This document shows, in pieces, positions 2,224 through 49,751 of a stretch of DNA of 64,000 nucleotides. Positions within the stretch are counted from its first letter, which is position 1. The number at the start of each line of letters is the position of its first letter. The notes below the pieces were generated by a model, which saw only the letters and a program-made list of their open reading frames with translations, made no database searches and was not told where the DNA came from. Both the position numbers and the translations under genes were made by a program. Origin of the DNA: Gammaproteobacteria bacterium (lineage in GTDB: Bacteria; Pseudomonadota; Gammaproteobacteria; Ga0077536); assembly GCA_963662545.2 (NCBI GenBank), contig CAXXLL010000002.1, positions 704,001 to 768,000 on the forward strand, given 5' to 3'.

Positions 2224-2246
2224 TTCCCGTCCCTCCTAATCTTTAT

Positions 2247-3631
2247 GGGTCTACGCGGAAACGTGTGGGTTGATATTGGCATTTCTGGGTAGTGGCGGAA
2301 GAAATGCCGCAATGATTTTCAGTTTGAGGAATTCCTCATCACGATAGCCATAGGCGCGTCGTTGCAGGACCCGGATTTTGTTGTTGACCCCTTCGACCAA
2401 TCCAAGACTGACTTTATTCTTAGCATCACAATAGGAAGCAATGCCATCCCAATGGGATTCAATCAGCTCAGCAAACTTGCGATACGGCGCCAATCGCTGC
2501 CATTTCAGACTGTCCTTCCAGCGCTCGAAAAAGGCACGCGCGCCGCGCTCGGTACGGTAGTCCCAGAGTTGGCCGAAGGTTTCCTTGAGGACGTAGGCGG
2601 TGTTCAGACGCCGGTTGGCCTGGAGCAGTTTTTTCAGGGCTCGTCTGCCATCCAGATTCAGGTTCTCGCGTCGCGAGAGCAAGGTATATCGCTGGCCTTT
2701 GATGTAACTCCTGTCCTTGCCGCGGAGACGTTTGTATTCACGGCGCCGGACTTCATCGAGAGCCTTTGAGAGGTGGCGCATGATATGGAACTTGTCATAG
2801 ATGATCCGCGCCTGCGGTGCGTTGTTCATGACCGAGTTACGGAACGGCTTCCACATGTCCATCGCCGCCAGTTCGATGCGAGCGCTCTTGTTCTCGCCCA
2901 ATGCCTGGAAAAACAGGTCGATGTCAGCCTCTTTGCGACCTTCACCACCGACCCAGATAGGACGCCCCCGATCCAGGTCACTGACGATGACCCGGTAGTT
3001 ATGTCCTTTGCGGATGGAGATCTCATCAATACCGATGGCCCGGGGTGCTGGCATGCCCGCCAGCTCAACCTGCTTTTGCATGTACAGCTTATCGAGGTCT
3101 TTCACCGTGCTGTGGTGCAGGCGTTCCCTCTCGGCGACAGCCTGGTTCGGCATGTCCCGGCACAGCTTGCCCACCTGCATGGCAAAGCGCTGCGTATAGC
3201 GAGGGTTCTTTGCCAGCCAGTCAAGATGTTCTACCTGCACGCCGCCGCACCTCCGGCAACTGACACGCCAGCGTTCGAACTCCAGGTAGATTCGCCATCC
3301 GGCAACTGACAGGTCTCGTACTCGCAGCACCTTCTTGTCGTAACGCCCGCGGCACCGGTGAGCACAGTGAGAACAGATCGCTGTTTTTTTCGCCTCTTGA
3401 GTTGGATCACACGGGCATACCGATCACCAAACATGCCCACCAATTTCGATGCGGCGGTAAAACCAGGGAACGCAAACAGCGCTCGGATCGACTTGGGATT
3501 CTTCATGGCCCTAGCCTACCCACAAAATGAAACCACTTTCACCCCATACGAAATCTCTGAATGTCTACATGATTTCAATGGTTTACACTTGGTCTAATTC
3601 AGAATTTACCCATATGAATCCGCGTAGACCC
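2247..3631 (-). mobile_element. ISL3-family IS, copy 1
   Basis: IRs gggtctacgcgga / tccgcgtagaccc; 8-bp target duplication ATCTTTAT. Confidence 0.95.
2251..3506 (-). CDS. ISL3 transposase (two ORFs joined by a probable -1 frameshift)
   Basis: IGIDEISIRKGH, MDMWKPF, DKFHI, EGVNNKIRVLQRRAYGYR; A7 slippery run at 3384-3390. Confidence 0.9.
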
Positions 3632-3668
3632 ATCTTTATAATACCCAGTTCATCCGGGACCGACCTGC

Positions 3669-6859: not shown

Positions 6860-8140
6860 ATGGGGTCGTATCCGGCCCCATCGCGGCACTGCAGCACTGC
6901 TCTAGTGTGCTGTCCCGCAAAGAAGTTTCGAAAGTCGGGCGAGTTTTTTCAAGATTGAATCGGCGGTTGCGGTCCATGCGAAAGGCACGGGGTTGGCGTT
7001 GTGCTGAGCAATATAGTGCTCGATACACGCAATGAGTTCTTTCACCTTTCGGAATGAACCGCGCTTGATAGCGCGCTGACTGATGAGACCAAACCAACGT
7101 TCGACCTGGTTGAGCCATGCAGCGTAGGTTGGCGTAAAGTGGACGTGAAATCGAGGTCGGCGAGCGAACCAGGCACGGACTTTCGGATGCTTGTGCGTGC
7201 CATAGTTGTCCATCACCAGATGCACATCCAGGTCGGCCGGAACGTTTTTCTCGAGGTGCTTGAGGAAGGACAGAAATTCCTGATGACGATGCCGCGCTTT
7301 GCACTGCCCGATGACGGTGCCGTTGGCGATATCGAGCGCCGCGAACAACGTGGTCGTGCCGTGCCGGAAGTAATCATGCGTGACGCCCTCGACATAACCG
7401 AGCCCCATCGGCAGAACCGGCTGACTGCGTTCCAGTGCCTGGATTTGGGTTTTTTCATCCACACACAAAACCAGCGCATTATCGGGTGGATTCAGGTACA
7501 AGCCGACGATATCGCGCACTTTCTCGACCAAGAACAGGTCGGTAGAGAGCTTGAACGTGCGGCTGCGATGCGGCTGGATCCCGAACAACGTGAAATAGCG
7601 ATGAACCGTACTCTTCGAGGGCTCGCTCACGCGTGCAAACGAACGGGTGCTCCAATGGGTCGCGTCCTCCGGTTGCTCGCGCAGCGATCAAGCGCGCAAC
7701 CTCATCGTCGTCATACGTCCGCCGACGATGACCCGGCGGCAGGTCATACAATCCGGCGACCCCGTTGGCGATATACCGGCGACACCAATTCGTGACCGTC
7801 GGATTGGACACATCGAGCTTTCTGGCAAGCGCGCTGTTAGACAGCCCATCGGCTGCCATCACGACGATCTTTGCGCGCCGTGCCAGCGCATGCGGCAGAC
7901 TGCGCGACCTCGCGTAACTGTTGAGGACCTCGTGTCCCTCCTCGCTCAGTTTAACCGTAAAGGATCTGGGTCGACCGCTAACCATCGCCTTGCTCCTGCA
8001 TGACACAATAGCCGATCTGATCATCACGACTTATGAAAGTTCATCGTGGGACAGCACACTAGATTACGTCTGCAATCCACTCAAGAGCGGTCGTCGAGTT
8101 GGTATCTTCGCCTTGCCGTGGGTGCACTGCGGCAGTCCTC
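6860..8140 (+). repeat. Multi-hairpin repeat copy R3, split by IS630 (halves 6860-6904 and 8060-8140)
   Basis: ggggtcgtatccggccccatcgcggcactgcagcactgctcTA|IS630|TAgattacgtctgcaatccactcaagagcggtcgtc. Confidence 0.9.
6905..8059 (-). mobile_element. IS630-family IS with frameshifted transposase (ORFs 7479-8027 and 6902-7630)
   Basis: IRs gtgtgctgtccc / gggacagcacac; TA duplication; VDEKTQIQAL, MDNYGTHK, WLNQVERWF. Confidence 0.93.
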
Positions 8141-8203
8141 ACGCTAAGTTGGTGCATCCCCCGCCGATCGATTCCGAACAGGGTAACCCGGCTCGGCGAT
8201 GAC

Positions 8204-8917
8204 TCAGAGTTCGGCGCGTTTGCTACCCAAATAATCGCTGATCTTCCAGAAATCCCCAGTGAGGCCAATCTCGTCGAGGTATTTCTGCAGATTGTCGATC
8301 CGTGGCATGCGGTAATCTTTAGAGAAGCGATCGAGGCCGCCGATCAATCCTGCCTCGTGCAACGATATGAGGTGGCCGCCTGCGTAATGCGGATTCTCTT
8401 CTCCCCAGCGTTCGACATGTTCTTCAGACCTGAAGAAATTGAGTCCGTTTCAGGCCATTTCCCAGTTGTGAAACCACTCCCGAAAAGGGAGCCCGACATG
8501 GATGCGCAGCTCAGAGTGACTTTGTGCGACGACTTGTCGATCTTTGCAACGGACTTCGAAGGGCTCCCCGCAGTGCGGACAGCACGAGCAGATCAGCGCC
8601 TCATCGTCGGGGAACATGTAGGACAGCCCCAATGCGTCGAGTCCACATACCGTGTAGGCGGTGTGCCCGCCACTGTAAGTCACATGATGGATTGTCGGGA
8701 CATTCGAGTACGGAAAGGCCATCAGCAGGTTCTGTGTACCACGAACGCGGACGATGTCATGCTGCCTTTCCAATTCGTCCAAGACCTCGATCACACGTTC
8801 ACGGCTGATGCTAAAGTGCTGCATCAAGTCGCTTAAGTTGGGCGTGCGGCCTGTTTTGTAACAATGATCGAGAATGTGCAGACGAACAGGCTGCGAGAGT
8901 TCGAGTTTGTAAGGCAA
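8204..8917 (-). CDS. MerB-like organomercurial lyase family protein, probable selenoprotein (UGA at 8450-8452)
   Basis: HTH, AFPYSNVPTIH, VCGLDALG, CPHCGEP; frame stays open past TGA as NGLNFFRSEEHVERW...GLTGDFW; GAGGAGG before the TTG start. Confidence 0.82.
8420..8452 (-). promoter_or_regulatory. Candidate bacterial SECIS element
   Basis: UGA AACGGACUCAAU UUCUUC-AGGUCU-GAAGAA: perfect stem with the AGGUCU apex of the E. coli fdhF SECIS at near-identical spacing. Confidence 0.75.
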
Positions 8918-9066
8918 GTTACTACCTCCTCATGCCGCTGGGGTGAACGTGCGCGGTCAGCGGAACGAGCGCGCGGCTCTACTCGAGTATATAGGCAAGA
9001 AAAGCGGGGTTGTAAGTACAGAAATTTTGGGGTCAGGGTAAAAACCCATTAGGACCGCTTCGGGTC

Positions 9067-10751
9067 CAGAGTGTGTGAAAACTCGGAATGAAGAGGAATC
9101 ACGTCGAGAACTCCTCGTCAGACGCAACGCGGCGCGGTTACGACGGCCGCGCTCGCGGTCCAATGCGATCGGTTAGTTAATGGAACATTCCTTAGAACGG
9201 CCCCAGAAGCCGGCAGTGAAGCCGTGGATCAGGGAGTTTTCGAGGCCACAGAGGGTCTCATGCCGTCATCGCTTCGATGAGCGTAGCGACACCCAGTAGA
9301 TTCATCACGCGTTTCATGTTGTAAGCGAGCACGTGCAGACTCATTTCCGTACCAACGTGTTTCAGCGTGCGCATCTGGAAGTGGGTCGAACCCATCCAGG
9401 ATTTGATCGTGCCAAATGGATGCTCGACCGTCTCTCGGCGGACACGCATAGGGTCAGGTTCACGATCCAATCGCGCCTGCACCGCTTCAACAACCGCTTC
9501 ATGTTCCCAACGGCTGACGCGCCGGTATCGACCCGTTGTGCATTTAGATTTGATCGGGCAGCGGGGACACGCCGAACTCCAGTAGCGCCGGATCTGCTTG
9601 CCTTTCTCCACTCGGGTGAACCGGTAAATCAGTCGCTCACCGGCCGGGCATTCATACGCATCCTCTTCGGGTTGGTAAATGAAGTCGCGCTTGCCAAACA
9701 AGCCCTTCGCCTGGTTACCCGAGGTCTGCGGTTTCGGCAGATAGGTCGTGATGCCGGCTTTAGCGCACGCCAAGATCTCTTCGCCACTGAAGTACCCGCG
9801 ATCCGCAACGACGGTCAACTCCTTCTTATCCAGCGCCTCTTTGGCTTTCTCCGACATGTTCGACAGTTGCGCCCGGTCATGACCTACGTTCGTCACTTCA
9901 TGTGCCACAATCAGATGACTCTTCGTGTCGACCGCCGTCTGCACGTTGTACCCCACCATGCCGCTGCCACGGCCGCTCGTCGCCATCGAGCGCGCGTCCG
10001 GGTCCGTCAGTGAGACCTGATGGTCCGGCGTCTCCTCGAGCCGTACCTCGAGCTTTTTTAGGCGGCCTATCTCTTCCTTCAGTACCTCGATCTTGTCCTT
10101 CAAACGCTGCGACTTGTCACCTGACACCGCACGCTCCTGGCGGTCGGCACTTGCAATTTCCGCCAGGTACCGCTCAACGCTCTCGTCAATCTGCTGCAAC
10201 CGACGTTTCAGCTTCGCCTTCGTGAAGTTCCGGTCACGGTTGTTTACCGCTTTGAACTTGCTGCCATCTATCGCCACGAAGGCTTCCGAAAACAGCTGCA
10301 GCTTACGGCACAGCATCACGAACTCCCGGCATACCAGACGAATGGCGTCACCGTTATCTTTGCGGAAATCGGCAATGGTCTTGAAATCAGGCGCCAGACG
10401 ACCCGTCAGCCACATCAGTTCCACGTTCCGCTGCGCCTCCCGTTCCAGGCGACGGCTCGATTGAACCCGGTTCAGGTAACCGTAGATATAGAGCTTCAGC
10501 ATCGTCGCCGGGTGATACCCCGGTCGACCCGTCTCATGCGCATCGGTTCTGAAACTCAGACCTGACAGATCCAACTCATCGACGAACACATCGATGACCC
10601 GCACCGCACTCTCCTCAGCGACATAATCGTCCAGACACTCGGGAAACAGCGTTGTTTGGCGGCGGTCCGCGCCTTCAATGAACCCGCTCATCAACGACTC
10701 CCCAGGACCGAAAGAGTGATCTTATCTGATGCAGAGTTTTCACACACTCTG
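9067..10751 (-). mobile_element. IS1182-family IS
   Basis: IRs cagagtgtgtgaaaactc / gagttttcacacactctg; 4-bp duplication GGTC. Confidence 0.92.
9258..10694 (-). CDS. IS1182-family transposase
   Basis: GRPGYHP..LYIYGY, SSRRLE, PDFKTIADFR, AIDGSK, ADRGY, VEHPFGTIK. Confidence 0.95.
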   Translation of the reverse strand: MMSGFIEGADRRQTTLFPECLDDYVAEESAVRVIDVFVDELDLSGLSFRTDAHETGRPGYHPATMLKLYIYGYLNRVQSSRRLEREAQRNVELMWLTGRLAPDFKTIADFRKDNGDAIRLVCREFVMLCRKLQLFSEAFVAIDGSKFKAVNNRDRNFTKAKLKRRLQQIDESVERYLAEIASADRQERAVSGDKSQRLKDKIEVLKEEIGRLKKLEVRLEETPDHQVSLTDPDARSMATSGRGSGMVGYNVQTAVDTKSHLIVAHEVTNVGHDRAQLSNMSEKAKEALDKKELTVVADRGYFSGEEILACAKAGITTYLPKPQTSGNQAKGLFGKRDFIYQPEEDAYECPAGERLIYRFTRVEKGKQIRRYWSSACPRCPIKSKCTTGRYRRVSRWEHEAVVEAVQARLDREPDPMRVRRETVEHPFGTIKSWMGSTHFQMRTLKHVGTEMSLHVLAYNMKRVMNLLGVATLIEAMTA

Positions 10752-17258: not shown

Positions 17259-19170
17259 TTAATGTGGCAATGCCAGATCTCGGTACCATAGCTGCCGGGT
17301 CGTCGTAGCCCGGCTTGCAACTATCCAACGACCGTCTGGGGAGACTTGCGGCATTAGAAGATTACCTCGCATTGAATGCGTAAGCTTCTCGACCTTCCCG
17401 CCCGAGGCCGACACCCGAAAGAGCTGATATCGACCATCGATACGGCCCGAGAACACTATGGTGCGGCCGTCTGGAGACCAATCTAGACCAGTAAACGTCG
17501 TGCTGTTGAATTCTGCAATCTTACGCGTCTCCCGGCTTTCTAAATCAAGCAGAATTATCCGATGCACATCTCCGAGCGCCCAATCTTCAACCGCAATGAT
17601 GTCCGCTACGGGCGACCAATATTGCATGCGTGCATTCTCGATGTCGCCAGGCGTCCCGATCCATTCGACATTCTGCCTAGCGCCCGTCTCAGGGTCGATC
17701 GTTATAAGGACTAATTCGGTAACGAACGTCGGCCCACCCTGCCGCCAAGACGATAGGATAAAACGTCGACTGTCAGGCGCCCAATCCGCTAGACCAACCT
17801 CCCACAGCGTTGGCGGAGTCACATGGATCTCTTCCTCAATTCCCGCGCCTTCGCGCAGTAATGCGAGACCGTCGCGACAAATTTCCCCCCAGCCATGCAG
17901 GTAATGTGGCACCGAATGGTCGCAGCGATGCGTGTGATACAGCATCCATCGGCCGTCAGGCGACCACGCAGGCGTAAAGTCTTCGTGGTTGCCAACGATC
18001 AGCATCTCAGGTGGCGCGAGGACTCTCGCCTGAGTATCAACCTTCACCGCGGCAACGTCGTATAACATGGCGCTGTCGATCACTCGATTATCGCCAATCG
18101 TGTAGGCAATGCGTTTTCCATCGGGTGACCAGTAAGGCAATGATCCATTCTCAGCGACCAGCCGTGCGCGGCCACCGTTGAAGGGTACAACTACGATATC
18201 GTTCTCGAGAGCACTGCGGGTCCAATACAAAGACGTTCCTACGACGACGGGAGAAAAATCGTCGAACGGTGAATCGACGATTTTCTGAAGCGAACGGTTC
18301 GAGAGCTTGAACACGTATATATCAAGGTCCCTGTCGGGAGGATTTGGTACGTGCCGCGATTCGACCGATGGTTGTCCATCGCTCGCGAGGCTTAGATAAA
18401 TTAGTCCTCCAATCTTATCGACGCCGATTGAGGTTGAATTCGCGGCGGCGTCAAGTTCCCCTAGAAGCGGGGTAACCCGCCCCAGCGGAACATCAACCTC
18501 GACAAGCGACCCCAATCCAGTTTCAAAATCGTGTAGTACGACCGCAAGTGCGCGATCCGAAAGCCATTCAACTGCCACGATGCGACCATTCAGCTCGATC
18601 GTTTTGAGTGCTTCCGGCGTACCCACATTTAGGTGATTCCAGTCGGTGTGGCGTAGGAAGTAATGACCGGCACGAAAGAACGCGACCTGCGTTCTGCTTT
18701 CGTCCCAACGCTGTATGATGTTGCTGGGTAGCGACTCGATTGCCGCGGCGCCAGGAATATCCGTTTGCCAACCGTCGCCTGTGACCGGCACGAAAGAACG
18801 CGACCTGCGTTCTGCTTTCGTCCCAACGCTGTATGATGTTGCTGGGTAGCGACTCGATTGCCGCGGCGCCAGGAATATCCGTTTGCCAACCGTCGCCTGT
18901 ATCAAATGCGACGGTATCCTTCGATCCGACGAAGGCCGCAAATTGAGCGCCCTCGGGGATGCCGTCCAATAATCGGCCTGTCGCGAGGTCGACCATGCCG
19001 AACTGGGGCCCTCGTCCAAAGGTAGCCAGCTTTTCATCGGACGATACGGCCAGTTCAGTCGGATATGAGAATATCCAACCTCCGATCTGATCTTCATAAA
19101 TCAATCGGTCTGCGTTTGCGACTGCGCTGAAAATCATTGTGACTAGAGCGCCAGTCATCTTTCGTCGCAT
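17259..19170 (-). pseudogene. Secreted TolB-like/PD40 beta-propeller protein, frameshifted by a 118-bp tandem duplication
   Basis: Repeated WSPDG motifs; signal peptide MRRKMTGALVT; duplication 18664-18781 / 18782-18899. Confidence 0.8.
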
Positions 19171-19316: not shown

Positions 19317-21400
19317 GAGTATAGGAAGCATAAACTCCGGTTCCCCAAGAATCCACCGCCTCTGAATAGCCGCCCACCCGACTCTTCGCCCTGCTCGCTG
19401 CACAATCTGCGCTGAATTCCACCACCAGTGCCTGAACTTTCCCCAGCTTTTCGCCCCTTTCCGTCCCATGCTTGCCTTCAAGCGAACAGCATCTCTGCCG
19501 CGCCGTCAAAGTTGCAGCAACTTGATTGGATTGGTTTATATTGCCGGTGTCAGCCGCACAGCTCTACCTGAGGCGGCGCCCTGCTTTGTGGCAACAACGC
19601 CGCCGGTTCCGGAGCCGGTTTTTCTTTCAGGTGAGTCAGTATCTTCTTGATCACCACCGGGTCTTCGATGCAGGCAATCACTTTGACGATGCCGCCGCAT
19701 TCACCGCAGGTCTCGATATCGATGTGGCCTACAGGGATGTAGGTCAGGGGCGTGAGCAGGACGCGGAAGCTTTGAAGACGCGCTTGAGTCGCGGTGCTTA
19801 AGGCTCATCGAAACCCGATGCGCGGCGGGCGTTGGCGGCTCATCTAATACTTTGGCCTTGTTGACTTTGCCGCGCTTCGCCGGTGTTACCAAGGCACGGT
19901 GCTTGCTGTTGGGCGCGCGCCAGGGATGGCGCGCATACAACCTTGTCAGGTTCACTCTGGGCTTGGGCACCAGCGCCACCCATCTTGCAATAAAGTATTC
20001 CGGGCATCCATGCCCGTCACCCCTTCGGGGCCAGCCTTCGGCTGTTCAAATTTGTTCCCGACAAATTTGTCCAGGGGCTCGAAAATGCCGTGCAGGGATG
20101 CGCGGGACTGGCCACATGCGTGGTGCCGTCGCGATACGGGGTTTTCAACGCGTAACGCACTTTGCCCTGCGCGGTGAGCGACAGGCGCTTTTCGGATACC
20201 GCCGGCCGGGTGATGTAGCGGCACAGGCGTTCCAACTTGTCCCGTTCATGGGCCTTGGCGGTGACGCCGGCGTGCAGGGAAAAACCGGCGACATTGCCGG
20301 GCGCCTCGCCATAGTGCTCTTCGGGGTCGCAGACGGGCAGGGTTTGCAAGGTGAATACTTTGCGCCCAGCATTTGGTCCCACAGCAATGCGGTAGGTAGC
20401 CGCTCTCGCGCGTCCCTGCGCTTCGCGGCATTCGTGCTTCCCTGCACATCATGGAATGCCCTTGCAGCTGTTCCATTGGCCCCATTTCCACGGCGTCCGC
20501 GGCGAGATAACTGTTTTCGATGTCACGTTCCAGTAAGCCCTGACGCTCGAGACAAATTTGCCAGGAGCAAATTTGGACGCACGAAGTGCGCCCGAAGGGG
20601 GCGCGCCAAGGACGGCACGCATCAAAGCGGCCGATGCCCTGGGCGATGGTGTGGACCAGTTGGGTGAGTTCGGCGCTTGTGGGCGCCTTCACCCAGCGGA
20701 ACTTGCCGCCGTCAACATACACCCGTCGAGGAACAGCATATGACAAATCGGCAGGACAGCCGATTTGCACAACCGGAGGTTGCCCCGCAAGGGTGGCACA
20801 CAGGGATGTGCGCCATGCAAATGGATATTCAGGTTGACCGCCGACCCGAAGCGCTGAATGAGTGTGACGGCATCAGCGCAAGCCGTGGTTTTTGTGTAAC
20901 CGGCTTTCCGGGTCAGATGCGTGGCGATGGTGCGGTAGACGATGCCCAGCACACGACTCATGACGTCTGGGCGACTGGCAAATAGAAAGCGTAGCGGGAA
21001 CGGTACGCTGAGCACCCACTGGCGCATCGGCTGTTCGGGCAAAACCTCATCCACCAACAAGGCGGCGCTTTGCGCCATGCGCCGTGTCCCGCAACTGGGG
21101 CAAAAGCCACGCCGTTTGCAGCTGAACGCCACCCGGCGTTCAGCATGGCAGGTGTCACAACGCACCCGTAGGAAGCCGTGCTCGCGGCGCCCGCATTTGA
21201 GGTACTCGTCGAACTCGCGCTCGACATACCCCGGCAATGTCGTTCCCTGAGCCGCCAAGTGGCCCTGGAACGCGGGATAATGCTCTTCAACAAGCTGGTA
21301 AAGGAGGGTGCGTTCCGGGCGATGGCGTTCGTAGACCGACGCAACAACCCCCGCACTGGCTTCCCTGCCAGCAGGCAACGGCAACATATTCGCATCCTTG
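19317..21400 (-). mobile_element. IS91/ISCR-type rolling-circle element, decayed
   Basis: oriIS-like end gagtataggaagcataaac at 19317, downstream of a Y2 HUH transposase. Confidence 0.85.
19550..21387 (-). pseudogene. IS91-family (Y2 HUH) transposase, disrupted
   Basis: YERHRPERTLLY, AFSCKRRGFCPSCG, QRFGSAVNLNIH, LCRYITRP, IACIEDPVVIKKIL; seven inserts and frameshifts. Confidence 0.9.
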
Positions 21401-25438: not shown

Positions 25439-26044
25439 TCAAGGGCCCTGGTAGGAGAAGGCGGAGTAAAATCCGTTCTTGTTCGAAAATTCCCAGTTAA
25501 AGCCCAGATCTTTGTAGCTCAACTTGCTGGAGCGGGCGGCTACCGCCGATTCCCCCGGGGCTATGCACAGGGGATGGTTGGTGATGGTGACATCCTGCCC
25601 GCCCTGTCCCTCGATGGCTTCAATGGCCACTTCCGCAAAGCTACCGATGCGTAGCCGGCGTTGCTTACCGTCGATGGTGAATTCCATGGGTGCCGAAGCC
25701 AGTCCGACGATCTCCGCTACGTGTGATGCCAGTATGGCCGGATGACCGCCGGCGTGGCCTCCAAATATTTGCTTCAGGGCCTCCCGCTGTCGGTCATTGG
25801 CCTTGTCGTCTAGGTAGACCGCGGCCTTCCACTTGACCTCCGCCATATGGCCGGGGGAATGCACCGCCAGGGCAACATTCAATCCGTCGAGGGACATGCC
25901 CTCGAAACTGCCTTTTTCGATGTGCCAGGCTATCAAGACCTCGCATTCGCCGGTGGTAGGCTTGCTGAGAAATACACACGGACAGGCCGTTTCGCAATTG
26001 CAACTTTCAAAATACTGTCCGCTCAAATTCCAGTCGTTCGCCAT
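25439..26044 (-). CDS. DUF1326 family protein
   Basis: W.LSGQYFESCNCETACPC signature. Confidence 0.85.
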   Translation of the reverse strand: MANDWNLSGQYFESCNCETACPCVFLSKPTTGECEVLIAWHIEKGSFEGMSLDGLNVALAVHSPGHMAEVKWKAAVYLDDKANDRQREALKQIFGGHAGGHPAILASHVAEIVGLASAPMEFTIDGKQRRLRIGSFAEVAIEAIEGQGGQDVTITNHPLCIAPGESAVAARSSKLSYKDLGFNWEFSNKNGFYSAFSYQGP

Positions 26045-26465
26045 GGCAGTACCCTCCTCATGTGAATGAACGCCCGTGGTTTCGTGAACCGGGCGCTATG
26101 GTGTATAGATTCTATAATTGAAGCATAATCCGCGAAGTGTATATTCGGGTCGAAATGAGTATGGAACGAATAAGTCGCTTCTACCCCAGCACGCTCAATC
26201 TGGACGATTTCGGGCAGGGATGAACATACGAGGACGAATAACTCCTACATTTTCTGAGTAAAGTTGACGTGGTCGGTGAGTTTGGTCAGAGAGCACGATT
26301 ATATGTGAGCAGAAGCGGCCAGAAGCCGACGTAAAGGTATAGCCCACTGAATTCAAGGGGCAGGATCCTTGAACACCGAATGAGGTTTTCAAAGGATCCG
26401 ACCTCTTGAACGCTTGCCCTGGTACGTTTGCGATTGGCGGGTGTCGCTTCGCCGAAGAAGTTCCG

Positions 26466-27797
26466 ATGTCCCGATTGAACTATATGAAGTCGTTTGTCAT
26501 CTGCGTGTTTATGACTTGGGCGTTGTCTGTCTCTGGTAGCGAGGTCTCGTATCAGGACGTGAGGGATTGGCTGCAAACCGATGCAGCCGCACCTGTCGAC
26601 GGCATCGCCCCGGGTGTCTATGGCGTACGGGATCTGGCGAAACTCCGGCACTACCTTCCGCCGGGCTTTGCCGAAGAATTCGATTTCTCCGAATTGTCAG
26701 TCGAGATCGCCGAAACCGAACACTACCTTCCGCACAAAAGCTACCGCGCGGCGACAGAGCGATTCGAAGGCACCGCGAGCATCGGTCCGGACGGCGCGAT
26801 CGGATCCTATACCGCGGGACGCCCATTCTCGGCAGCTGCGATCGACGCCGCACCACCAGAAAAAGCGGGCTATATGGTTGCCTGGAGCCACATATTCCGG
26901 TGGCAACATTACGGTTACGAAACCGACATTCTGATGAGCTATGTCGAGCCGAACGCATCGGGCGACCGGCACACCGCCGGCATGGAGGGCGGCGGTAACG
27001 TAATTCGATCAATGACGCTCTACTATCGCCGGGTCTACCTGAACAAGCTCGCACATCAACCTGATGGTGACTACCGGTTGGACATCGACAACACCGATGA
27101 GCTGCATTGGAAAGAGTACATCGAATTTTTAGATCCCTTCGATGTGGCGGGTTCAAAATTTGTCGTCGAGCGATCGCTCGACCCGAACCTCGGTGATCAG
27201 ATGTATTCCTACCTGCCGAATGAACGGAGAGTACGACGATTATCGGTCAAGGAACGATCCGATAGCTTTATGGGCAGTGACCTGACCTTTGACGATCTAC
27301 AGGGCTTCTCCGGTCGTGTGCTGGACTATTCCTGGAAATATCTGGGACGCAAAGTCGTAATGCACGTCAGCGCGTCGCGACATGAGCAAGCAGTGTTTTT
27401 CGGGCCGCGCAGTCACGTTCCATCGGACCGATGGCAATTGCGACCGTGCTACGTCGTTGAACTCATCCCGAAGTGGGAAGGGCACCCTTACGGCCGTCGC
27501 GTCCAGTTTATCGACGCCGATTCGTTCAATACGGTGGTGTCGTTGATCTTCGACCGGGGTGATTCCTTATGGAAAATCGTGTATACGGCGTACGAACACG
27601 CAGATGTGCCGGCCGGTACCGAGCCGAACGCGGAAGAGTCCGTACACCGCTGGTCCGCCCTGGTGGCCATCGATCTACACAACAACACGACCACGGTCTC
27701 GCGCGAACCGCCAGGAACTCAGTCGCGATACGAGGCGGTGTCGCCCTCTCGGGTGAGGCGGATATTCGATGTGTCGAACCTCACAGGCGGCCGTTGA
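26466..27797 (+). CDS. DUF1329 family exported protein
   Basis: Signal peptide; YTAGRPF, YLPNERRVRRLS, DDLQGFSG, WQLRPCYVVE. Confidence 0.8.
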   Translation: MSRLNYMKSFVICVFMTWALSVSGSEVSYQDVRDWLQTDAAAPVDGIAPGVYGVRDLAKLRHYLPPGFAEEFDFSELSVEIAETEHYLPHKSYRAATERFEGTASIGPDGAIGSYTAGRPFSAAAIDAAPPEKAGYMVAWSHIFRWQHYGYETDILMSYVEPNASGDRHTAGMEGGGNVIRSMTLYYRRVYLNKLAHQPDGDYRLDIDNTDELHWKEYIEFLDPFDVAGSKFVVERSLDPNLGDQMYSYLPNERRVRRLSVKERSDSFMGSDLTFDDLQGFSGRVLDYSWKYLGRKVVMHVSASRHEQAVFFGPRSHVPSDRWQLRPCYVVELIPKWEGHPYGRRVQFIDADSFNTVVSLIFDRGDSLWKIVYTAYEHADVPAGTEPNAEESVHRWSALVAIDLHNNTTTVSREPPGTQSRYEAVSPSRVRRIFDVSNLTGGR

Positions 27798-32145: not shown

Positions 32146-32226
32146 AAGCAAAAAGCAAGACCTTGACCCGGCAGCCCCTAAGGGGCAAAGCGCGGGCACG
32201 CTGGTCTTTATCTATTGCTTAAATAT

Positions 32227-32964
32227 CTAATGTGGGACATGAACTCCTGCAGTGGCAGATGATGCAAAGGATGCCACCATCGCAGCCCACATCTCTGTGC
32301 TTACAAACAAACTACCAAACGTGCCGCCCACAAAAAAACAGACAAAACCTAACGTTATGCCCAGTGACAGTCGTTTGAGTTGTCTAAAATCCCGGTAGAT
32401 CATGAAGCCTATAAAAACCGCTGCGAAAAACAGGACGATCATTTGTGCGTTTTTCGTTGTAAATGTGGGAAAGCTGGGCTGAACGATATTTCGAATCAAA
32501 CGATCAAAGCCAGGCACAGTTAATAGCGCTGCGGCCATAATCATCAAACGCTTATGTACCTCAGGTTTTCGATGAAAATAAACGCCGACGGCAACGCAGC
32601 AGGTAAATGCTGAGGTCAGAATAATATTAAATCGCGCACCACCCGTGATATGCCCACCTGTGCCGGTTAGATAGGCTACCGCCACATAGGTGAGAATAAA
32701 TACACTGATCGTAATAAATGCCGAAACAATGCCTAACTCTCGATGCAGGACTCGTCTATTTTTCAAGATCAGCCATGCCTGTAAAATGGCCGCGAAATAC
32801 CAGAGCGTAAACAGGACGCCATGAAAATTCATCCATACTGGCAGGGGATCATCAAAGAACCGGGGTCTTAGAAAAAAGCTCGGGACGAAGCCGCCAAGAC
32901 AAAGAATAGCCATGACAATGAATGAGAAAAAATAGAACCGGTCCTGGGACATCGGCGTAGTCAT
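32227..32964 (-). CDS. Multi-pass membrane protein (sole gene between R10 and R11)
   Basis: About 7 hydrophobic helices; FHG..W, LHRELG, HKRLM His motifs; AT-richer. Confidence 0.75.
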   Translation of the reverse strand: MTTPMSQDRFYFFSFIVMAILCLGGFVPSFFLRPRFFDDPLPVWMNFHGVLFTLWYFAAILQAWLILKNRRVLHRELGIVSAFITISVFILTYVAVAYLTGTGGHITGGARFNIILTSAFTCCVAVGVYFHRKPEVHKRLMIMAAALLTVPGFDRLIRNIVQPSFPTFTTKNAQMIVLFFAAVFIGFMIYRDFRQLKRLSLGITLGFVCFFVGGTFGSLFVSTEMWAAMVASFASSATAGVHVPH

Positions 32965-33107
32965 AAAATTTTCTCCACCGAACTAACTCATCAACTAATC
33001 AACCTGTACAAGTAGAGCAGCATTGCGAGTCCCTCTGTTCAATTCGGGTTAATTGTTAAAGTACTCTAACCAGCAACAAATCGATTCGCACGGCTGCAGC
33101 TTCGCTG

Positions 33108-34187: not shown

Positions 34188-35552
34188 TCAACGCCCGCTT
34201 GTAAGATTCGAAACATCGAAGGTCCGGCGGACCTTCGATGCACTCATCGTCGGATGTGATGTGGGCAGCCCAATTCCCACCGACCCACGGTCGTTCTTGT
34301 GGTCGATAGAAATTGACGCGCGCCGGATCACGACGCTCTTCTCTTCCGCGGCCGACCTGCCCCGCATATCTTGTGGTGCCTTGACGACGGTATATAGCGA
34401 TTTCCACAGATTGCCGCCCTTTTCGAATATCGATGCGAACGTAGCCTCGAAGTTTTCCATATCGATGAACATGATGCGGCTAGCGTAGGGGTGGTCCTCC
34501 CACACCGGGGTCAACTCGACCACATAGCACGGCCGTACCTGCCAGCGGTCGTTCGGGATGCGGCTGCTGGGACCATAAAATCTGGCGCTTTCGTGTTTCG
34601 AATTCGCGACGAATAATATCGACTTTTGCCCGATGTAGGTCCATTTGAAATCGAACACGCGCCCTGAAAAGACGGCGAAGTCGTCGAGCGTAAAATCGGT
34701 GCCCATGAACGAATCCGCGCGTTCCTTTGCGGACAGTCGCCGCACGCGCCGCTGCGTCGGAAGATAGGAATTCACCTGGTCGTCTTCGTTAGCGAAGGCG
34801 CGCTCGACCACGAACTTAGTACCCTTGACATCGAACGGTTCGACGAACTCGAAGAAATCCTTCCATAGTAGCCGCTTAGCGTCATCCAGATTGAACCGGT
34901 ATTGTTGATCCGGAAGCATCGCAATATGGCTGAGATACGCCCGCTGGTAGGACATCATCATGAAGCGATCGACTGTGCCACCGCCTTCGAGCCCTGGGGT
35001 CAGTACGGCACTCTCGCCGCCGGCCGTCGGGCGCACCAAGTTGATCTTAATCCCAGCCGTTTTGTAACCGTAGTACTGCCAGCGCTGGATGTGATTCCAC
35101 GCAACCATCTGGCCTGCATCATCGGGTGAGGCTGCGGCAATCCGGGCGTGCGAGAATGGCAAGCCGGCAGCGTAATTTTCGAGTGCGCCGTCGACCCCTA
35201 GGCTGGCGCGATCGCCTCCGTTTACAGTCGCTTCTTGGTACGTCGCCGGTGCTCCGAAGTGGTAGGGCGCTTCGATTTCAACGGCGACTTCGGGAAACTG
35301 TAGGTCGTCGAAAAAACCAGGGACGACGAAGGGTCTTAGTAGTTCGAGATCCTCGACCCCGACGATCGTTCCCGCAATTGGGCCATCGTGTGCGTAGCGA
35401 TATTCTTCCAACCACGCGAGTACGCCATCTCGGGTTGGTGCGGCCAGGGTCGTTTGCATCATGATCATCGCGATAGCAACTATCAGCAGCCGCGACCATG
35501 AGGCTGCTGATATCAACAGATGATATCGGATGACGTCTTCTTTAAAATGCAA
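34188..35552 (-). CDS. DUF1329 family exported protein (paralog of 26466-27797)
   Basis: YAAGLPF, YLPTQRRVRRLS, WQVRPCYVVE, C-terminal FDVSNLTSGR. Confidence 0.8.
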   Translation of the reverse strand: MHFKEDVIRYHLLISAASWSRLLIVAIAMIMMQTTLAAPTRDGVLAWLEEYRYAHDGPIAGTIVGVEDLELLRPFVVPGFFDDLQFPEVAVEIEAPYHFGAPATYQEATVNGGDRASLGVDGALENYAAGLPFSHARIAAASPDDAGQMVAWNHIQRWQYYGYKTAGIKINLVRPTAGGESAVLTPGLEGGGTVDRFMMMSYQRAYLSHIAMLPDQQYRFNLDDAKRLLWKDFFEFVEPFDVKGTKFVVERAFANEDDQVNSYLPTQRRVRRLSAKERADSFMGTDFTLDDFAVFSGRVFDFKWTYIGQKSILFVANSKHESARFYGPSSRIPNDRWQVRPCYVVELTPVWEDHPYASRIMFIDMENFEATFASIFEKGGNLWKSLYTVVKAPQDMRGRSAAEEKSVVIRRASISIDHKNDRGSVGIGLPTSHPTMSASKVRRTFDVSNLTSGR

Positions 35553-38622: not shown

Positions 38623-40007
38623 GGGTCTACGCGGAAACGTGTGGGTTGATATTGGCATTTCTGGGTAGTGGCGGAAGAAATGCCGCAATGATTTTCAGTT
38701 TGAGGAATTCCTCATCACGATAGCCATAGGCGCGTCGTTGCAGGACCCGGATTTTGTTGTTGACCCCTTCGACCAATCCAAGACTGACTTTATTCTTAGC
38801 ATCACAATAGGAAGCAATGCCATCCCAATGGGATTCAATCAGCTCAGCAAACTTGCGATACGGCGCCAATCGCTGCCATTTCAGACTGTCCTTCCAGCGC
38901 TCGAAAAAGGCACGCGCGCCGCGCTCGGTACGGTAGTCCCAGAGTTGGCCGAAGGTTTCCTTGAGGACGTAGGCGGTGTTCAGACGCCGGTTGGCCTGGA
39001 GCAGTTTTTTCAGGGCTCGTCTGCCATCCAGATTCAGGTTCTCGCGTCGCGAGAGCAAGGTATATCGCTGGCCTTTGATGTAACTCCTGTCCTTGCCGCG
39101 GAGACGTTTGTATTCACGGCGCCGGACTTCATCGAGAGCCTTTGAGAGGTGGCGCATGATATGGAACTTGTCATAGATGATCCGCGCCTGCGGTGCGTTG
39201 TTCATGACCGAGTTACGGAACGGCTTCCACATGTCCATCGCCGCCAGTTCGATGCGAGCGCTCTTGTTCTCGCCCAATGCCTGGAAAAACAGGTCGATGT
39301 CAGCCTCTTTGCGACCTTCACCACCGACCCAGATAGGACGCCCCCGATCCAGGTCACTGACGATGACCCGGTAGTTATGTCCTTTGCGGATGGAGATCTC
39401 ATCAATACCGATGGCCCGGGGTGCTGGCATGCCCGCCAGCTCAACCTGCTTTTGCATGTACAGCTTATCGAGGTCTTTCACCGTGCTGTGGTGCAGGCGT
39501 TCCCTCTCGGCGACAGCCTGGTTCGGCATGTCCCGGCACAGCTTGCCCACCTGCATGGCAAAGCGCTGCGTATAGCGAGGGTTCTTTGCCAGCCAGTCAA
39601 GATGTTCTACCTGCACGCCGCCGCACCTCCGGCAACTGACACGCCAGCGTTCGAACTCCAGGTAGATTCGCCATCCGGCAACTGACAGGTCTCGTACTCG
39701 CAGCACCTTCTTGTCGTAACGCCCGCGGCACCGGTGAGCACAGTGAGAACAGATCGCTGTTTTTTTCGCCTCTTGAGTTGGATCACACGGGCATACCGAT
39801 CACCAAACATGCCCACCAATTTCGATGCGGCGGTAAAACCAGGGAACGCAAACAGCGCTCGGATCGACTTGGGATTCTTCATGGCCTTAGCCTACCCACA
39901 AAATGAAACCACTTTCACCCCATACGAAATCTCTGAATGTCTACATGATTTCAATGGTTTACACTTGGTCTAATTCAGAATTTACCCACATGAATCCGCG
40001 TAGACCC
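38623..40007 (-). mobile_element. ISL3-family IS, copy 2 (transposase 38627-39882)
   Basis: Same IRs as copy 1; target duplication GAAAAACA. Confidence 0.95.
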
Positions 40008-42093: not shown

Positions 42094-44668
42094 GTGCCAT
42101 TGAGAGACTGTGCCCGCTACTGGTTCCTGCCTCGCATCCTCGCGCTACTTTTTGTATCGGCGGCGATCTCTGAGGCAGTGTCGGCGCAAACCGATGAATT
42201 AGATCAAGTCCGCAATCTGCTACTCGTTTCCGAAGCCACCTCGGTTGCCCGGGACCTGAGCGTTTCCGACGACATGTTCGATCAAATAGCGGCTGTCGCG
42301 GTGCTGGCCGACGTCGGTGATAAGGCGGCGATCGAGTTTCTCGCCGCTGGGCTTGAGTCTACGGATTTCCTCTACCAACGTGCTGTGGTCGACACACTAT
42401 TGAGTCTGCGCAGCGCAGACGGTGTCGAAGTCTTACGTCGCTATATGGAGGCCGCTGAGGACCTGGGCTTTTTGCGCTATCTGATGGAATCGCTTGCCTC
42501 CCATCCGCTCCCGGTAATGATAAGTTTTCTGGGTCTACGCGGAAACGTGTGGGTTGATATTGGCATTTCTGGGTAGTGGCGGAAGAAATGCCGCAATGAT
42601 TTTCAGTTTGAGGAATTCCTCATCACGATAGCCATAGGCGCGTCGTTGCAGGACCCGGATTTTGTTGTTGACCCCTTCGACCAATCCAAGACTGACTTTA
42701 TTCTTAGCATCACAATAGGAAGCAATGCCATCCCAATGGGATTCAATCAGCTCAGCAAACTTGCGATACGGCGCCAATCGCTGCCATTTCAGACTGTCCT
42801 TCCAGCGCTCGAAAAAGGCACGCGCGCCGCGCTCGGTACGGTAGTCCCAGAGTTGGCCGAAGGTTTCCTTGAGGACGTAGGCGGTGTTCAGACGCCGGTT
42901 GGCCTGGAGCAGTTTTTTCAGGGCTCGTCTGCCATCCAGATTCAGGTTCTCGCGTCGCGAGAGCAAGGTATATCGCTGGCCTTTGATGTAACTCCTGTCC
43001 TTGCCGCGGAGACGTTTGTATTCACGGCGCCGGACTTCATCGAGAGCCTTTGAGAGGTGGCGCATGATATGGAACTTGTCATAGATGATCCGCGCCTGCG
43101 GTGCGTTGTTCATGACCGAGTTACGGAACGGCTTCCACATGTCCATCGCCGCCAGTTCGATGCGAGCGCTCTTGTTCTCGCCCAATGCCTGGAAAAACAG
43201 GTCGATGTCAGCCTCTTTGCGACCTTCACCACCGACCCAGATAGGACGCCCCCGATCCAGGTCACTGACGATGACCCGGTAGTTATGTCCTTTGCGGATG
43301 GAGATCTCATCAATACCGATGGCCCGGGGTGCTGGCATGCCCGCCAGCTCAACCTGCTTTTGCATGTACAGCTTATCGAGGTCTTTCACCGTGCTGTGGT
43401 GCAGGCGTTCCCTCTCGGCGACAGCCTGGTTCGGCATGTCCCGGCACAGCTTGCCCACCTGCATGGCAAAGCGCTGCGTATAGCGAGGGTTCTTTGCCAG
43501 CCAGTCAAGATGTTCTACCTGCACGCCGCCGCACCTCCGGCAACTGACACGCCAGCGTTCGAACTCCAGGTAGATTCGCCATCCGGCAACTGACAGGTCT
43601 CGTACTCGCAGCACCTTCTTGTCGTAACGCCCGCGGCACCGGTGAGCACAGTGAGAACAGATCGCTGTTTTTTTCGCCTCTTGAGTTGGATCACACGGGC
43701 ATACCGATCACCAAACATGCCCACCAATTTCGATGCGGCGGTAAAACCAGGGAACGCAAACAGCGCTCGGATCGACTTGGGATTCTTCATGGCCTTAGCC
43801 TACCCACAAAATGAAACCACTTTCACCCCATACGAAATCTCTGAATGTCTACATGATTTCAATGGTTTACACTTGGTCTAATTCAGAATTTACCCACATG
43901 AATCCGCGTAGACCCAGTTTTCTTATAGAGGCGCTCGACCATTATGACCCAGTGGTTAAAAAGTTCGCCCTGCAATCGCTCTCTCAGTTACATTTTGAGA
44001 ACCACGACTCACGAATTCACCTACTGGCGAGCGATGCCGGAGAAATCGTGCAGGTGCGGGCATACGCCTGGAATGTATTACTGGATTCGCCACATCGGCG
44101 AGAGTCGATCGAACGCCTGCTGGAAATGTCTCGGCTTGGAAGTCCCGAAGCAAAGGAAGTCGTGGCAGTGGCGCTCGGCCGTGTTGACACACCACGAACT
44201 CGCGAAGCATTGGTTGAGTTGATGTCGAGTAACGACAACCGCGTAGCGCTTGCTGCGCTTACAAGTTCTGCCGGGTTGCGGGATGAGGCAGCAGCGCGTG
44301 AGCTCGAATGGACCATCGTTTACGGTGATGGACTTCATCGTGCTGCCGCGGCTGGCGGACTAAAGCGTATCGACCCGGCGGTCGCCTCGCGTGTTACCGA
44401 GAACCTAATGTCCTGTTACCTGCTTGGTCCGTTCACGGGGATGCGCCTTGTCGAAGCGTGGGCCATGATCGATGCCGACCCAAGCACCGTATATGGTTGG
44501 GGTTTGTCCCACGAAGACGAAGGAGTTCGCATGCAGAGCATTTGGTTAATAGGTCAACGTCGCGATGTAGAATACTTAGAACGAGTTGCTGCCTTCCTCC
44601 GCGATCCGAGTCCTGCCATCCGAGGCCTCGCGGCGTGGGCGGTGTTGCGCCTGGCTAGAGGGCCATAG
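42094..44668 (+). pseudogene. HEAT-repeat exported protein interrupted by ISL3 copy 3
   Basis: HEAT-like repeats on both sides; frame restored across the AGTTTTCT duplication (VMISFLIEALD). Confidence 0.8.
42531..43915 (-). mobile_element. ISL3-family IS, copy 3 (transposase 42535-43790)
   Basis: Same IRs; target duplication AGTTTTCT. Confidence 0.95.
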
Positions 44669-47693: not shown

Positions 47694-48923
47694 TTACTCG
47701 AATACCGGAATCAGCGATCCAGCGACTTCGACAATTTCGCGACTGCCGTCGTCACCGTAGAAGAACAGCAACCCGGCGATGACGCTATCGGGATCGTTAA
47801 TCATGCGGGTCAGACGCTGGGTCTCCCATAAAGCATCTTCGGCAAACACCTCGACGCTTTTTGTTTCGCCGGGCGCAATGCCATCATTCACCACCCGCAG
47901 TCCCGCACTCGCGATCAAGTCATGTTCGTCTAACGGTGTGACCGTTCGCACAGCCGGATTGATAAATCGAATGTTTGCCGTCATGAACTCGCCGACGTAA
48001 AGGGTCGCCGGCCCGTTATTCATCACTAAAAGCTCCATTCTGAAGCTGCGGCCGGGAATACGGTAAGTGGCTTTCTCGACCTGCACGTTGACCTTAGATA
48101 CGGGATAAGGTTTGTCGGCCGGTATACTGATCTTAGACGTTCGCAGAGGAATGGTGACGGGAGCCGCGCGCTCGCCCCACATAAAACCCGCGACGATAAT
48201 CAACAACGTGACGGTAATAAACCCGACGGCAACCTTTACATCCCCGTCGGTAATCAGGTCGTCCCCGTCTCCGCCTTTATTCTCGGCTTCCGTTACCGCG
48301 CGAAGACGCGGAACGAGCAACGGACGCTGTCGCAGCCAATAAAAAAGCCACGCCCCGCCGATGACTATCCAAATCAAATGCCAAGCAGCAATCGTGCCCA
48401 GATTGAATCTTTCCAAATCGACTTCGCGCCCGAACATCGTCTCCACCTTGTTCTCGAAATCGTCAAACGAACCGCTTACCTCGACCCAGCGTCCAGGTCC
48501 GGCCAGGGTACCGGCATCCTTGACATTGAGCACCGGATGTACGTGGAAACGTCCCGGCTTGCGGGCCTTTAGTTCGATTGCGAAGCTATAATCCTTGCCC
48601 TGTTCGAGCGAGGTGGACTGCACGGCGCTGATGCCGTCGATATTGGACGATACCCGTACGAAATTCGGTCCCCCGGTCGACACGTTCAAGAATACCCGGT
48701 CCTCAACCGACGGGATCTGCTCCGGCCAATAGCTCGATACGCGTAGGCGTCCCTTAATCTTTACGACTTCTCCAATCGCAACCGTGGGCGGCCCAATTTT
48801 AACGTCATACCAGTTGATGGTGCGCATGCGGGTGGTGGCCTGCATCGCGCGCTCACCGTGCGCGAGCCCCTCCAGCGGCACAAAAACCAGCAAGAACAAC
48901 AGTGCTGCTGCTCGGATCAACAT
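47694..48923 (-). CDS. pmoB: Copper membrane monooxygenase subunit B (PmoB/AmoB family)
   Basis: AHGER..RMRTINWYD, PGRFHVHP, ATYRIPGRS, GEFMTANIRF, DPDSVIAGLLFF. Confidence 0.95.
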   Translation of the reverse strand: MLIRAAALLFLLVFVPLEGLAHGERAMQATTRMRTINWYDVKIGPPTVAIGEVVKIKGRLRVSSYWPEQIPSVEDRVFLNVSTGGPNFVRVSSNIDGISAVQSTSLEQGKDYSFAIELKARKPGRFHVHPVLNVKDAGTLAGPGRWVEVSGSFDDFENKVETMFGREVDLERFNLGTIAAWHLIWIVIGGAWLFYWLRQRPLLVPRLRAVTEAENKGGDGDDLITDGDVKVAVGFITVTLLIIVAGFMWGERAAPVTIPLRTSKISIPADKPYPVSKVNVQVEKATYRIPGRSFRMELLVMNNGPATLYVGEFMTANIRFINPAVRTVTPLDEHDLIASAGLRVVNDGIAPGETKSVEVFAEDALWETQRLTRMINDPDSVIAGLLFFYGDDGSREIVEVAGSLIPVFE

Positions 48924-48955
48924 ATGCCAACCAAGTTAAGACAGTTATTACGGAT

Positions 48956-49690
48956 TCAGGCTTTCGTTATCCAGGTCTGCCTGTTAAGGATCGATCCGAA
49001 CGCCCACGACACATAAAAGACCAAGGTGCAGACGAAACCCGCGAAGACGGCCGTGAGCGGCGTGACCGCATCACCGAAAGTCCGCAATACTGATCGCTCC
49101 ACCAGGCGAATATATTCCGGTAAGCCGGTACGAATATATTCGTAACCGAGAAGGTCTGCCGTCGTCAGCATTTCCCCGTTGTAGTTGATGGGTTCATGGA
49201 AGGCGGCCAGCAACGGCCAGTTAACCGGGTAGACCAACAGCCCCCACAGAAACGCACCCGAGAGGCCGGTCAGGAAGACACTGCGCGTAATAAGCAGCGA
49301 GCAATCGATGAGGATGGCGAGCGGAATGAAGATTGACGGCCAGACAAAGCTCATCGGGTAGCCGGCGAACAGGTGGAAATTCAGGTAGACGCTGAACCAA
49401 CGCATGATCGTGTAGAGCAGCACAACGCCCGTGCAGCCGATGGGCAGCCTGAATCGGGACCAAAATGCAGCGGCGAGCCCGGCGGGAAAGACGAGCAGGG
49501 CCGCTACCGGTAACAGGGGCCAGAAGCGCCGGTCTTTCCAGTCGACCCAGAACTCCCAATCGCCGATCGTCACCGACATGACGAAAACCGTCGCACCCGC
49601 GACGGCAAACAGAATCACGGCGAACAACGCCAGATCGACGTTGCTCTCGAGGTATTCGGTGATTCTGGAACGCTCAGCTACCGTAGCCAC
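48956..49690 (-). CDS. pmoA: Copper membrane monooxygenase subunit A (PmoA/AmoA family)
   Basis: GDWEFWVDWKDRRFWP, YPVNWP, GYEYIRTGLPEYIR..LRTFG. Confidence 0.95.
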   Translation of the reverse strand: MATVAERSRITEYLESNVDLALFAVILFAVAGATVFVMSVTIGDWEFWVDWKDRRFWPLLPVAALLVFPAGLAAAFWSRFRLPIGCTGVVLLYTIMRWFSVYLNFHLFAGYPMSFVWPSIFIPLAILIDCSLLITRSVFLTGLSGAFLWGLLVYPVNWPLLAAFHEPINYNGEMLTTADLLGYEYIRTGLPEYIRLVERSVLRTFGDAVTPLTAVFAGFVCTLVFYVSWAFGSILNRQTWITKA

Positions 49691-49751
49691 AAAAGCCTTT
49701 TACCTCTCGATTCGCGCGTCTGGCGCCGGTCCCGGATACGGCCGACAGAAA

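Follow-up and report, generated by a model that had tools for sequence, protein, structure and literature searches.

A MerB-like gene with an in-frame UGA

The window (the whole 64-kb stretch of DNA analysed) carries, on its minus strand at 8204-8917, a putative selenoprotein gene of the MerB superfamily. The ORF listing gives a 155-aa ORF at 8450..8917 (minus strand), which starts with TTG and stops with TGA at 8452-8450. Read with TGA as U, the frame continues for 81 more sense codons (NGLNFFRSEEHVERW...IGLTGDFWKI...) up to a second TGA at 8206-8204, and the read-through product has 237 residues. This translation confirms the original prediction of a frame open for 81 sense codons past TGA 8450-8452, as far as 8204.

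The features of the locus are given below. MerB residue numbers are those in the available text of bioRxiv 10.1101/2022.07.06.499078; L001 is an orthologous gene in a Gammaproteobacteria MAG, contig CBDCJB010000008.1.

8204..8917, minus strand: whole putative selenoprotein gene, MerB-like organometal lyase; TTG start at 8917-8915, 237 codons including Sec156
8925..8931, minus strand: Shine-Dalgarno-like GAGGAGG, 7 nt upstream of the TTG; identical in the L001 ortholog
8645..8647, minus strand: Cys91 codon, equivalent of MerB Cys96; Cys in 148 of 154 aligned proteins, among the matches listed
8636..8638, minus strand: Asp94 codon, matching the proton donor Asp99 of MerB; of 154 aligned proteins, among the matches listed, 131 have Asp and 15 have Glu
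8450..8452, minus strand: in-frame UGA, putative Sec156, at the MerB Cys159 column; TGA also in L001
8420..8437, minus strand: putative SECIS hairpin, 12 nt past the UGA; 7-bp stem UUCUUCA/UGAAGAA, GGUC tetraloop at 8430-8427
8382..8443, minus strand: longest stretch of the gene in which the window and L001 do not differ, 62 nt; starts 6 nt past the UGA codon and spans the hairpin
8246..8266, minus strand: clade-specific C-terminal motif GLTGDFW, residues 218-224, 62-68 codons past the UGA
8168..9016, minus strand: block shared with the MAG ortholog, 89.9% nucleotide identity over 849 nt (blastn); the gene and its flanks, about 100 nt on the upstream side and about 35 nt on the downstream side

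A scan of 8000-9260 for promoters and terminators returned no promoter-like site and three terminator-like sites, all on the wrong strand.

One predicted MerB-fold domain on both sides of the UGA

The read-through protein matches the Pfam MerB family (PF03243) at 84.8 bits, against a gathering threshold of 27. The match runs from residue 71 to 188, spans the TGA and covers positions 2-116 of the 126 in the profile. Taken alone, the part upstream of the TGA scores 53.2 bits (profile 2-78), and the 81 residues downstream match profile positions 88-117.

Alignment to PDB chains with phmmer places residue 156, the TGA codon, opposite the Cys of 'CKQIHYF' in MerB2 (5c17) and opposite Cys159, the Cys of 'FCSHVHFF', in the MerB C160S mutant 3f2g. 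The TGA had been predicted to fall at the second catalytic Cys of MerB, just before the FF motif, with the first catalytic Cys intact in VCGLD: the phmmer alignment agrees with the former, and both C91 and D94 are present, aligned with the Cys-x-x-Asp motif of MerB and MerB2.

The AlphaFold2 model of the read-through protein, computed from 62 aligned sequences, has a mean pLDDT of 93 and a pTM of 0.88; the blocks covering residues 151-190, past the UGA, reach 95-98. All 11 top matches of this model in a Foldseek search of the PDB are MerB2 or MerB, with E-values from 1.5e-13 to 1.2e-6. The best of them is MerB2 (5c17; E 1.5e-13, TM 0.67 by query length and 0.76 by target length). The read-through protein is thus confidently predicted to be one complete MerB-fold domain.

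With MerB and MerB2 (3F0P, 3F2G, 5C17) it shares the fold (Foldseek E 1.5e-13 to 1e-9; TM 0.55-0.67 by query length, 0.60-0.76 by target length), the Pfam family, and the arrangement of a Cys-x-x-Asp motif with a distal chalcogen ligand before the aromatic 'FF' strand. It differs from them in the UGA (putative Sec) at Cys159, in an identity of only 20-26%, in about 40 extra C-terminal residues, and in having no merA/R/T/P nearby. Canonical MerB is also distinct at the level of curated families: the window protein scores 37.6 against a cutoff of 193 on NF009710, and 31.9 against a cutoff of 200 on NF033555.

The ortholog and the close homologs

L001 is the sole genome match to the window protein, with 91% amino acid identity over residues 1-237. 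It carries TGA at the same codon, and its downstream frame is open, with no frameshift or extra stop. Nucleotide similarity between the two sequences is confined to 8168-9016, and the flanks differ beyond. Within the 714 nt of the gene there are 62 differences. Upstream of the UGA they amount to 28 synonymous and 12 non-synonymous codons; downstream the numbers are 10 and 9, a weaker ratio than the 28:12 upstream, and third codon positions take 11 of the 21 base changes there. In simulations, a substitution-free run of at least 62 nt covered the hairpin in 0.8% of trials and occurred anywhere in the gene in 15%.

A word-indexed search found three close database homologs (72-93% identity), all of which end at residue 155, at about 65% of the query. 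Another database protein, the 52-aa P0014, is 90% identical to residues 186-236 and is distinct from both the window and L001. The entry P0002, from a 517-kb contig, reproduces the window's 155-aa N-terminal part, except that 25 residues (IVRVRGTQNLLMAFPYSNVPTIHHV) are duplicated in tandem and in frame; it is a variant from another strain or an artefact of assembly.

Public gene calls (P0002-P0004 and P0014) annotate the gene as if the UGA were a genuine stop. This would leave a 155-residue product, possibly a separate 52-aa product from the TTG at 8362, and a downstream homology that is only a relic. A shortage of selenium normally leads to some termination at Sec UGA codons, which also speaks for such an outcome in part. 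The 155-aa product, however, would be without the second metal ligand, the NFF strand and three helices, the very elements that AlphaFold2 packs into one domain at a pLDDT of 95-98. Moreover, such termination would leave the 29 codons from the UGA to the TTG at 8362 untranslated, although no part of the gene is more conserved and these codons fit the MerB profile (88-117). We therefore give little credence to genuine termination, and prefer to read the UGA as a Sec codon inside one continuous gene.

A putative SECIS hairpin

The sequence UUCUUC-AGGUCU-GAAGAA, announced by the original prediction at 12 nt past the UGA, is present there, at 8437-8420. RNAfold predicts a 7-bp stem closed by a GGUC tetraloop, with -8.3 kcal/mol when a 3-bp lower stem is included. 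The claim that its apex is that of the E. coli fdhF SECIS also holds: in the fetched K-12 sequence the fdhF UGA is followed by 17 nt and then by AGGUCU, flanked by GC/GC, and in the window 18 nt separate the UGA from AGGUCU. Both hairpins lie within coding sequence just past the UGA, and both have the apical hexamer AGGUCU with its GGUC loop. They differ in the stem. That of the window is an uninterrupted A/U-rich helix of 7 bp; the bulged U, which is considered important in the fdhF element, is missing, and no extended lower helix is kept in the L001 ortholog.

No second hairpin of this kind occurs in the window. It holds 591 GGTC sites on both strands, and closure by at least 6 contiguous pairs occurs only at 8437-8420. 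From 50 mononucleotide shuffles, the number of GGUC hairpins expected per window is 1.7 for stems of at least 6 bp and 0.5 for at least 7 bp; by arithmetic from these shuffles, the chance that one falls within the short stretch where a SECIS would follow a given UGA is of the order of 1e-4.

Folding stability provides no usable evidence for a SECIS, since the RNAfold z-scores are not significant (-0.8 and -0.7 for the window, -0.18 for L001). Over a 66-nt stretch the minimum free energy favours an alternative pairing, with a z-score of -1.2. The upper hairpin is identical in L001 and the 3-bp lower stem is broken there; the hairpin DNA was compared in these two sequences and, being identical, displays no covariation. 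An Rfam scan of 7900-9300 at E<=10 gave no match, which counts for little, given how short and varied bacterial SECIS elements are. Altogether, the putative element fits a bacterial SECIS by its position and sequence, while stability and covariation lend no support.

Putative Sec forms and Cys forms in the wider family

An exhaustive search of representatives yielded 723 matches at E<=1e-3. The best 150 of these 723 were retained in an alignment of 154 proteins, which includes two read-throughs with U written as C. The pairing of UGA with Cys implied by the original prediction is found at column 156: among the matches listed, Cys occupies it in 117 of the 154 aligned proteins, the two U-as-C read-throughs counted, and Trp in only 3. 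The other states are Ala (2), Asn, Tyr, Gly and Arg (1 each) and a gap (28).

Among the matches listed, 15 database proteins end exactly at column 155, three of them close and 12 distant (P0023, P0051, P0053, P0072, P0078, P0085, P0116, P0130, P0132, P0135, P0143 and P0152). The distant ones were seen as proteins, and their stop codons are deduced from the end point. Ends elsewhere before residue 195 are single and scattered, except for two at 187.

We built a FastTree phylogeny from the N-terminal 151 columns of 149 sequences, omitting P0002, one fragment and three short sequences. All 16 Sec-type entries (the 14 ending at residue 155, the window and L001) lie within one clade of 63 members, with a support of 0.90; none of the 86 sequences outside it ends at column 155. 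Inside the clade, the Sec-type entries make up 9 separate groups among 35 true Cys forms. To judge from the sequences, this scatter of putative Sec-type entries among Cys forms is the usual pattern of Sec/Cys interchange. The residue preceding the stop is T in 13 of the 16 Sec-type entries and A in 3.

The clade is marked by a GLxGxFW tail: W224 is found in all 42 members whose sequence extends this far, and 84 of the 86 non-members are gapped at its column. Because this tail lies downstream of the UGA, the region past the UGA is, by this evidence, coding and under selection. The CxxC pair C113/C116 was considered as a further feature specific to the clade and rejected, as it is about equally common outside. 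A tblastn search of plasmids returned 57 records, all less than 60% identical; one full-length, unannotated match, on S. fredii pNGR234a, is a normal Cys form that no stop interrupts.

A few clade members differ at column 156: Trp in P0049, P0050 and P0079, Arg in P0122 and Gly in P0113. These could be mutated Sec sites, or TGA codons translated by the gene caller under another code.

The presence of W (3), R (1) and G (1) at this column, each with codons one base away from TGA, could also be taken to mean that the UGA encodes a standard residue (Trp, Cys, Gly or Arg) and not Sec. Against this, table 11 gives normal readings for the genes of the window, where TGA is a common stop, and a GC content of 48-61% gives no hint of an organism using code 4 or 25. 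In such decoding, a hairpin that resembles a SECIS and bears the fdhF apex would have no role, and the homologs carry Cys, the chemical analogue of Sec. We regard decoding as a standard amino acid as very improbable; insertion of Sec opposite the UGA is consistent with both the hairpin and the Cys column.

Genomic neighbourhood and host

The gene is flanked by an IS630-type element (6902-8027) and by an IS5/IS1182-type transposase gene (9258-10694), neither of which is repeated within the window. The original prediction saw a stand-alone unit between R3 and R4, with no mer operon in the window. The lack of a mer operon holds: mer-operon families give no match at E<=1e-5 among the 47 window ORFs scanned. 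The flanks are the two IS types just named. The merR/T/P/A families are likewise absent among the 20 L001 ORFs scanned. Around L001, the neighbours are catabolic genes (PNPOx, enoyl-CoA hydratase and SDR), and IS elements are absent.

No selA, selB, selC or selD was found in the 64-kb window by profile scan of the 47 ORFs and by a tRNA scan, ARAGORN detecting 0 tRNA genes there. A mechanical listing gives 104 TGA read-through candidates in the window; nine read-through ORFs, chosen among them by length and context, were scanned with Pfam for further selenoproteins, and none has a domain spanning the TGA.

The window is unusually rich in IS elements. An ISL3-family IS is present in three copies of about 1.39 kb, 99.8-100% identical (2242-3632, 38623-40007 and 42526-43916), each with a 359-aa transposase (DDE_Tnp_ISL3), and a truncated IS91-type gene at 20689-21387 retains the Zn-binding domain only. 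Two perfect tandem duplications are also found: one of 187 bp (57942-58128 / 58139-58325) and one of 119 bp (18664-18782 / 18782-18900), the latter within a PD40 beta-propeller gene at 17259-19097. A 245-aa ORF without Pfam family is shared with the MAG contig, with 87% DNA identity between 32226-33021 of the window and 11636-12431 of L001. In L001 this ORF follows the MerB-like gene at a distance of about 1 kb; in the window the two are 24 kb apart, a difference consistent with IS-driven rearrangement.

Mutation of a Cys codon (TGC or TGT) to TGA in a gene now decaying in this IS-ridden region would agree with the place of the gene, wedged between two IS elements, with the single base change needed and with the lack of Sec machinery within the 64-kb window, but a pseudogene is strongly disfavoured: the TGA is shared with an ortholog about 10% diverged in nucleotides and sitting in an IS-free context, the 81 downstream codons are intact, a 72%-identical homolog and 12 more distant representatives also end at residue 155, the clade-specific C-terminal motif is kept, and an fdhF-like hairpin stands at the right distance. 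A functional gene with a Sec codon remains our preferred reading.

As to the host, a copper membrane monooxygenase operon is encoded at 47694-50534 on the minus strand, in the order C-A-B (AmoC, AMO, Monooxygenase_B; E 1e-71 to 1e-127), and points to an aerobic gammaproteobacterium that oxidises hydrocarbons, methane or ammonia. The window also encodes luciferase-like monooxygenases and further functions that depend on oxygen. From the copper membrane monooxygenase and these other O2-dependent genes, the host is likely aerobic. The window further contains two DUF1329/LolA-like genes and one DUF1326 gene, at 26406-27797 (plus strand), 34188-35552 (minus strand) and 25439-26044 (minus strand); these families are frequent at hydrocarbon-degradation loci.

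Relation to SaoL

MerB-like selenoproteins had been stated to be known already, and one is: SaoL (NCBIfam NF040728), a MerB-like organometallic lyase selenoprotein of the SAO locus (Haft & Gwadz, bioRxiv 10.1101/2022.07.06.499078). According to the available text of that preprint, SaoL has a CU motif and about 50 residues after Sec, and it occurs in a nine-gene SAO neighbourhood (an ABC importer, an efflux pump and others) of exclusively anaerobic hosts. In the portions of the literature accessible to a full-text search, this was the sole primary description of a MerB-like selenoprotein found, and the accessible parts of reviews give SaoL as the only such entry.

As far as the available text describes SaoL, the window protein resembles it in the MerB fold, in the (putative) Sec at the MerB Cys159 column, and in the Cys and Asp equivalents of MerB Cys96/Asp99. 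For both, database entries are routinely cut at the UGA, and a classical mer operon is missing.

The differences are nonetheless numerous. The window protein scores 67.3 bits on NF040728, whose cutoff is 140; 12 of 13 residue-155 enders score 33.7-72 bits, and the remaining one, P0135, has no family match at E<=1e-6. A true SaoL, P0145 (224.8 bits), sits outside the 63-member clade. By the same preprint text, the CU of SaoL is replaced by AU in the window and L001 and by TU in their relatives, and the ~50 residues that follow Sec in SaoL compare with ~80 in the window, GLxGxFW tail included. A Pfam-level scan of the neighbours finds no nine-gene SAO set, as that text defines it, around the window or L001 gene. 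Finally, the SaoL hosts it reports are exclusively anaerobic, whereas the window encodes O2-dependent enzymes. The window protein thus belongs to the MerB superfamily but to neither curated family, because it falls below the NF040728 cutoff and both NCBIfam MerB cutoffs: the known MerB-like selenoprotein is another family, in another part of the tree.

A probable selenocysteine in a MerB-type active site

We conclude, with a probability of roughly 0.85, that the window gene is a real selenoprotein gene encoding a MerB-like lyase with Sec in place of an active-site Cys. The original prediction of a Sec-containing MerB-like lyase is supported by the UGA, frame and hairpin conserved in L001, by close homologs that stop at residue 155, and by a read-through product modelled as one confident MerB domain.

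What follows on Sec insertion, catalytic activity and the substrate is inferred. The UGA, at the position of the second metal-binding active-site residue (MerB Cys159), would be decoded as selenocysteine, with SelB-GTP-Sec-tRNA(Sec) recruited by the short GGUC-loop hairpin located within the coding sequence 12 nt downstream. The finished protein would then carry a Cys91/Asp94/Sec156 triad. If it works like MerB, an organometal cation would be held between the Cys91 thiolate and the Sec156 selenolate, and Asp94 would protonate the departing carbon, so that the carbon-metal bond is cleaved. A selenolate is more nucleophilic and softer than a thiolate; here it would make metal binding stronger or turnover faster. 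The substrate is perhaps not an organomercurial, since the window gene is not accompanied by mer genes.

On balance, we also lean towards a broader view, in which these genes form a second, solitary Sec branch of the MerB superfamily, previously undescribed and separate from SaoL. Its marks would be a (T/A)-U motif, a GLxGxFW tail, aerobic hosts and repeated Sec/Cys switches, with about a quarter of the clade representatives ending at the Sec column; its members may use non-mer organometal(loid) substrates.

In the literature accessible to us, SaoL is the one case described so far of Sec at the active site of a MerB-type protein; it comes from strict anaerobes, where it belongs to a dedicated operon. 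A second clade, in bacteria with O2-dependent metabolism and without partner genes, would imply a broader origin or retention of the swap from Cys159 to Sec. It would also add another family that annotation pipelines cut, as the three close and 12 distant homologs end at the Sec column. The gene would make an experimentally convenient test case: its putative SECIS has exactly the apex of E. coli fdhF, so that E. coli could plausibly insert Sec when expressing it. The finding bears on microbial cleavage of carbon-metal bonds outside classical mercury resistance.
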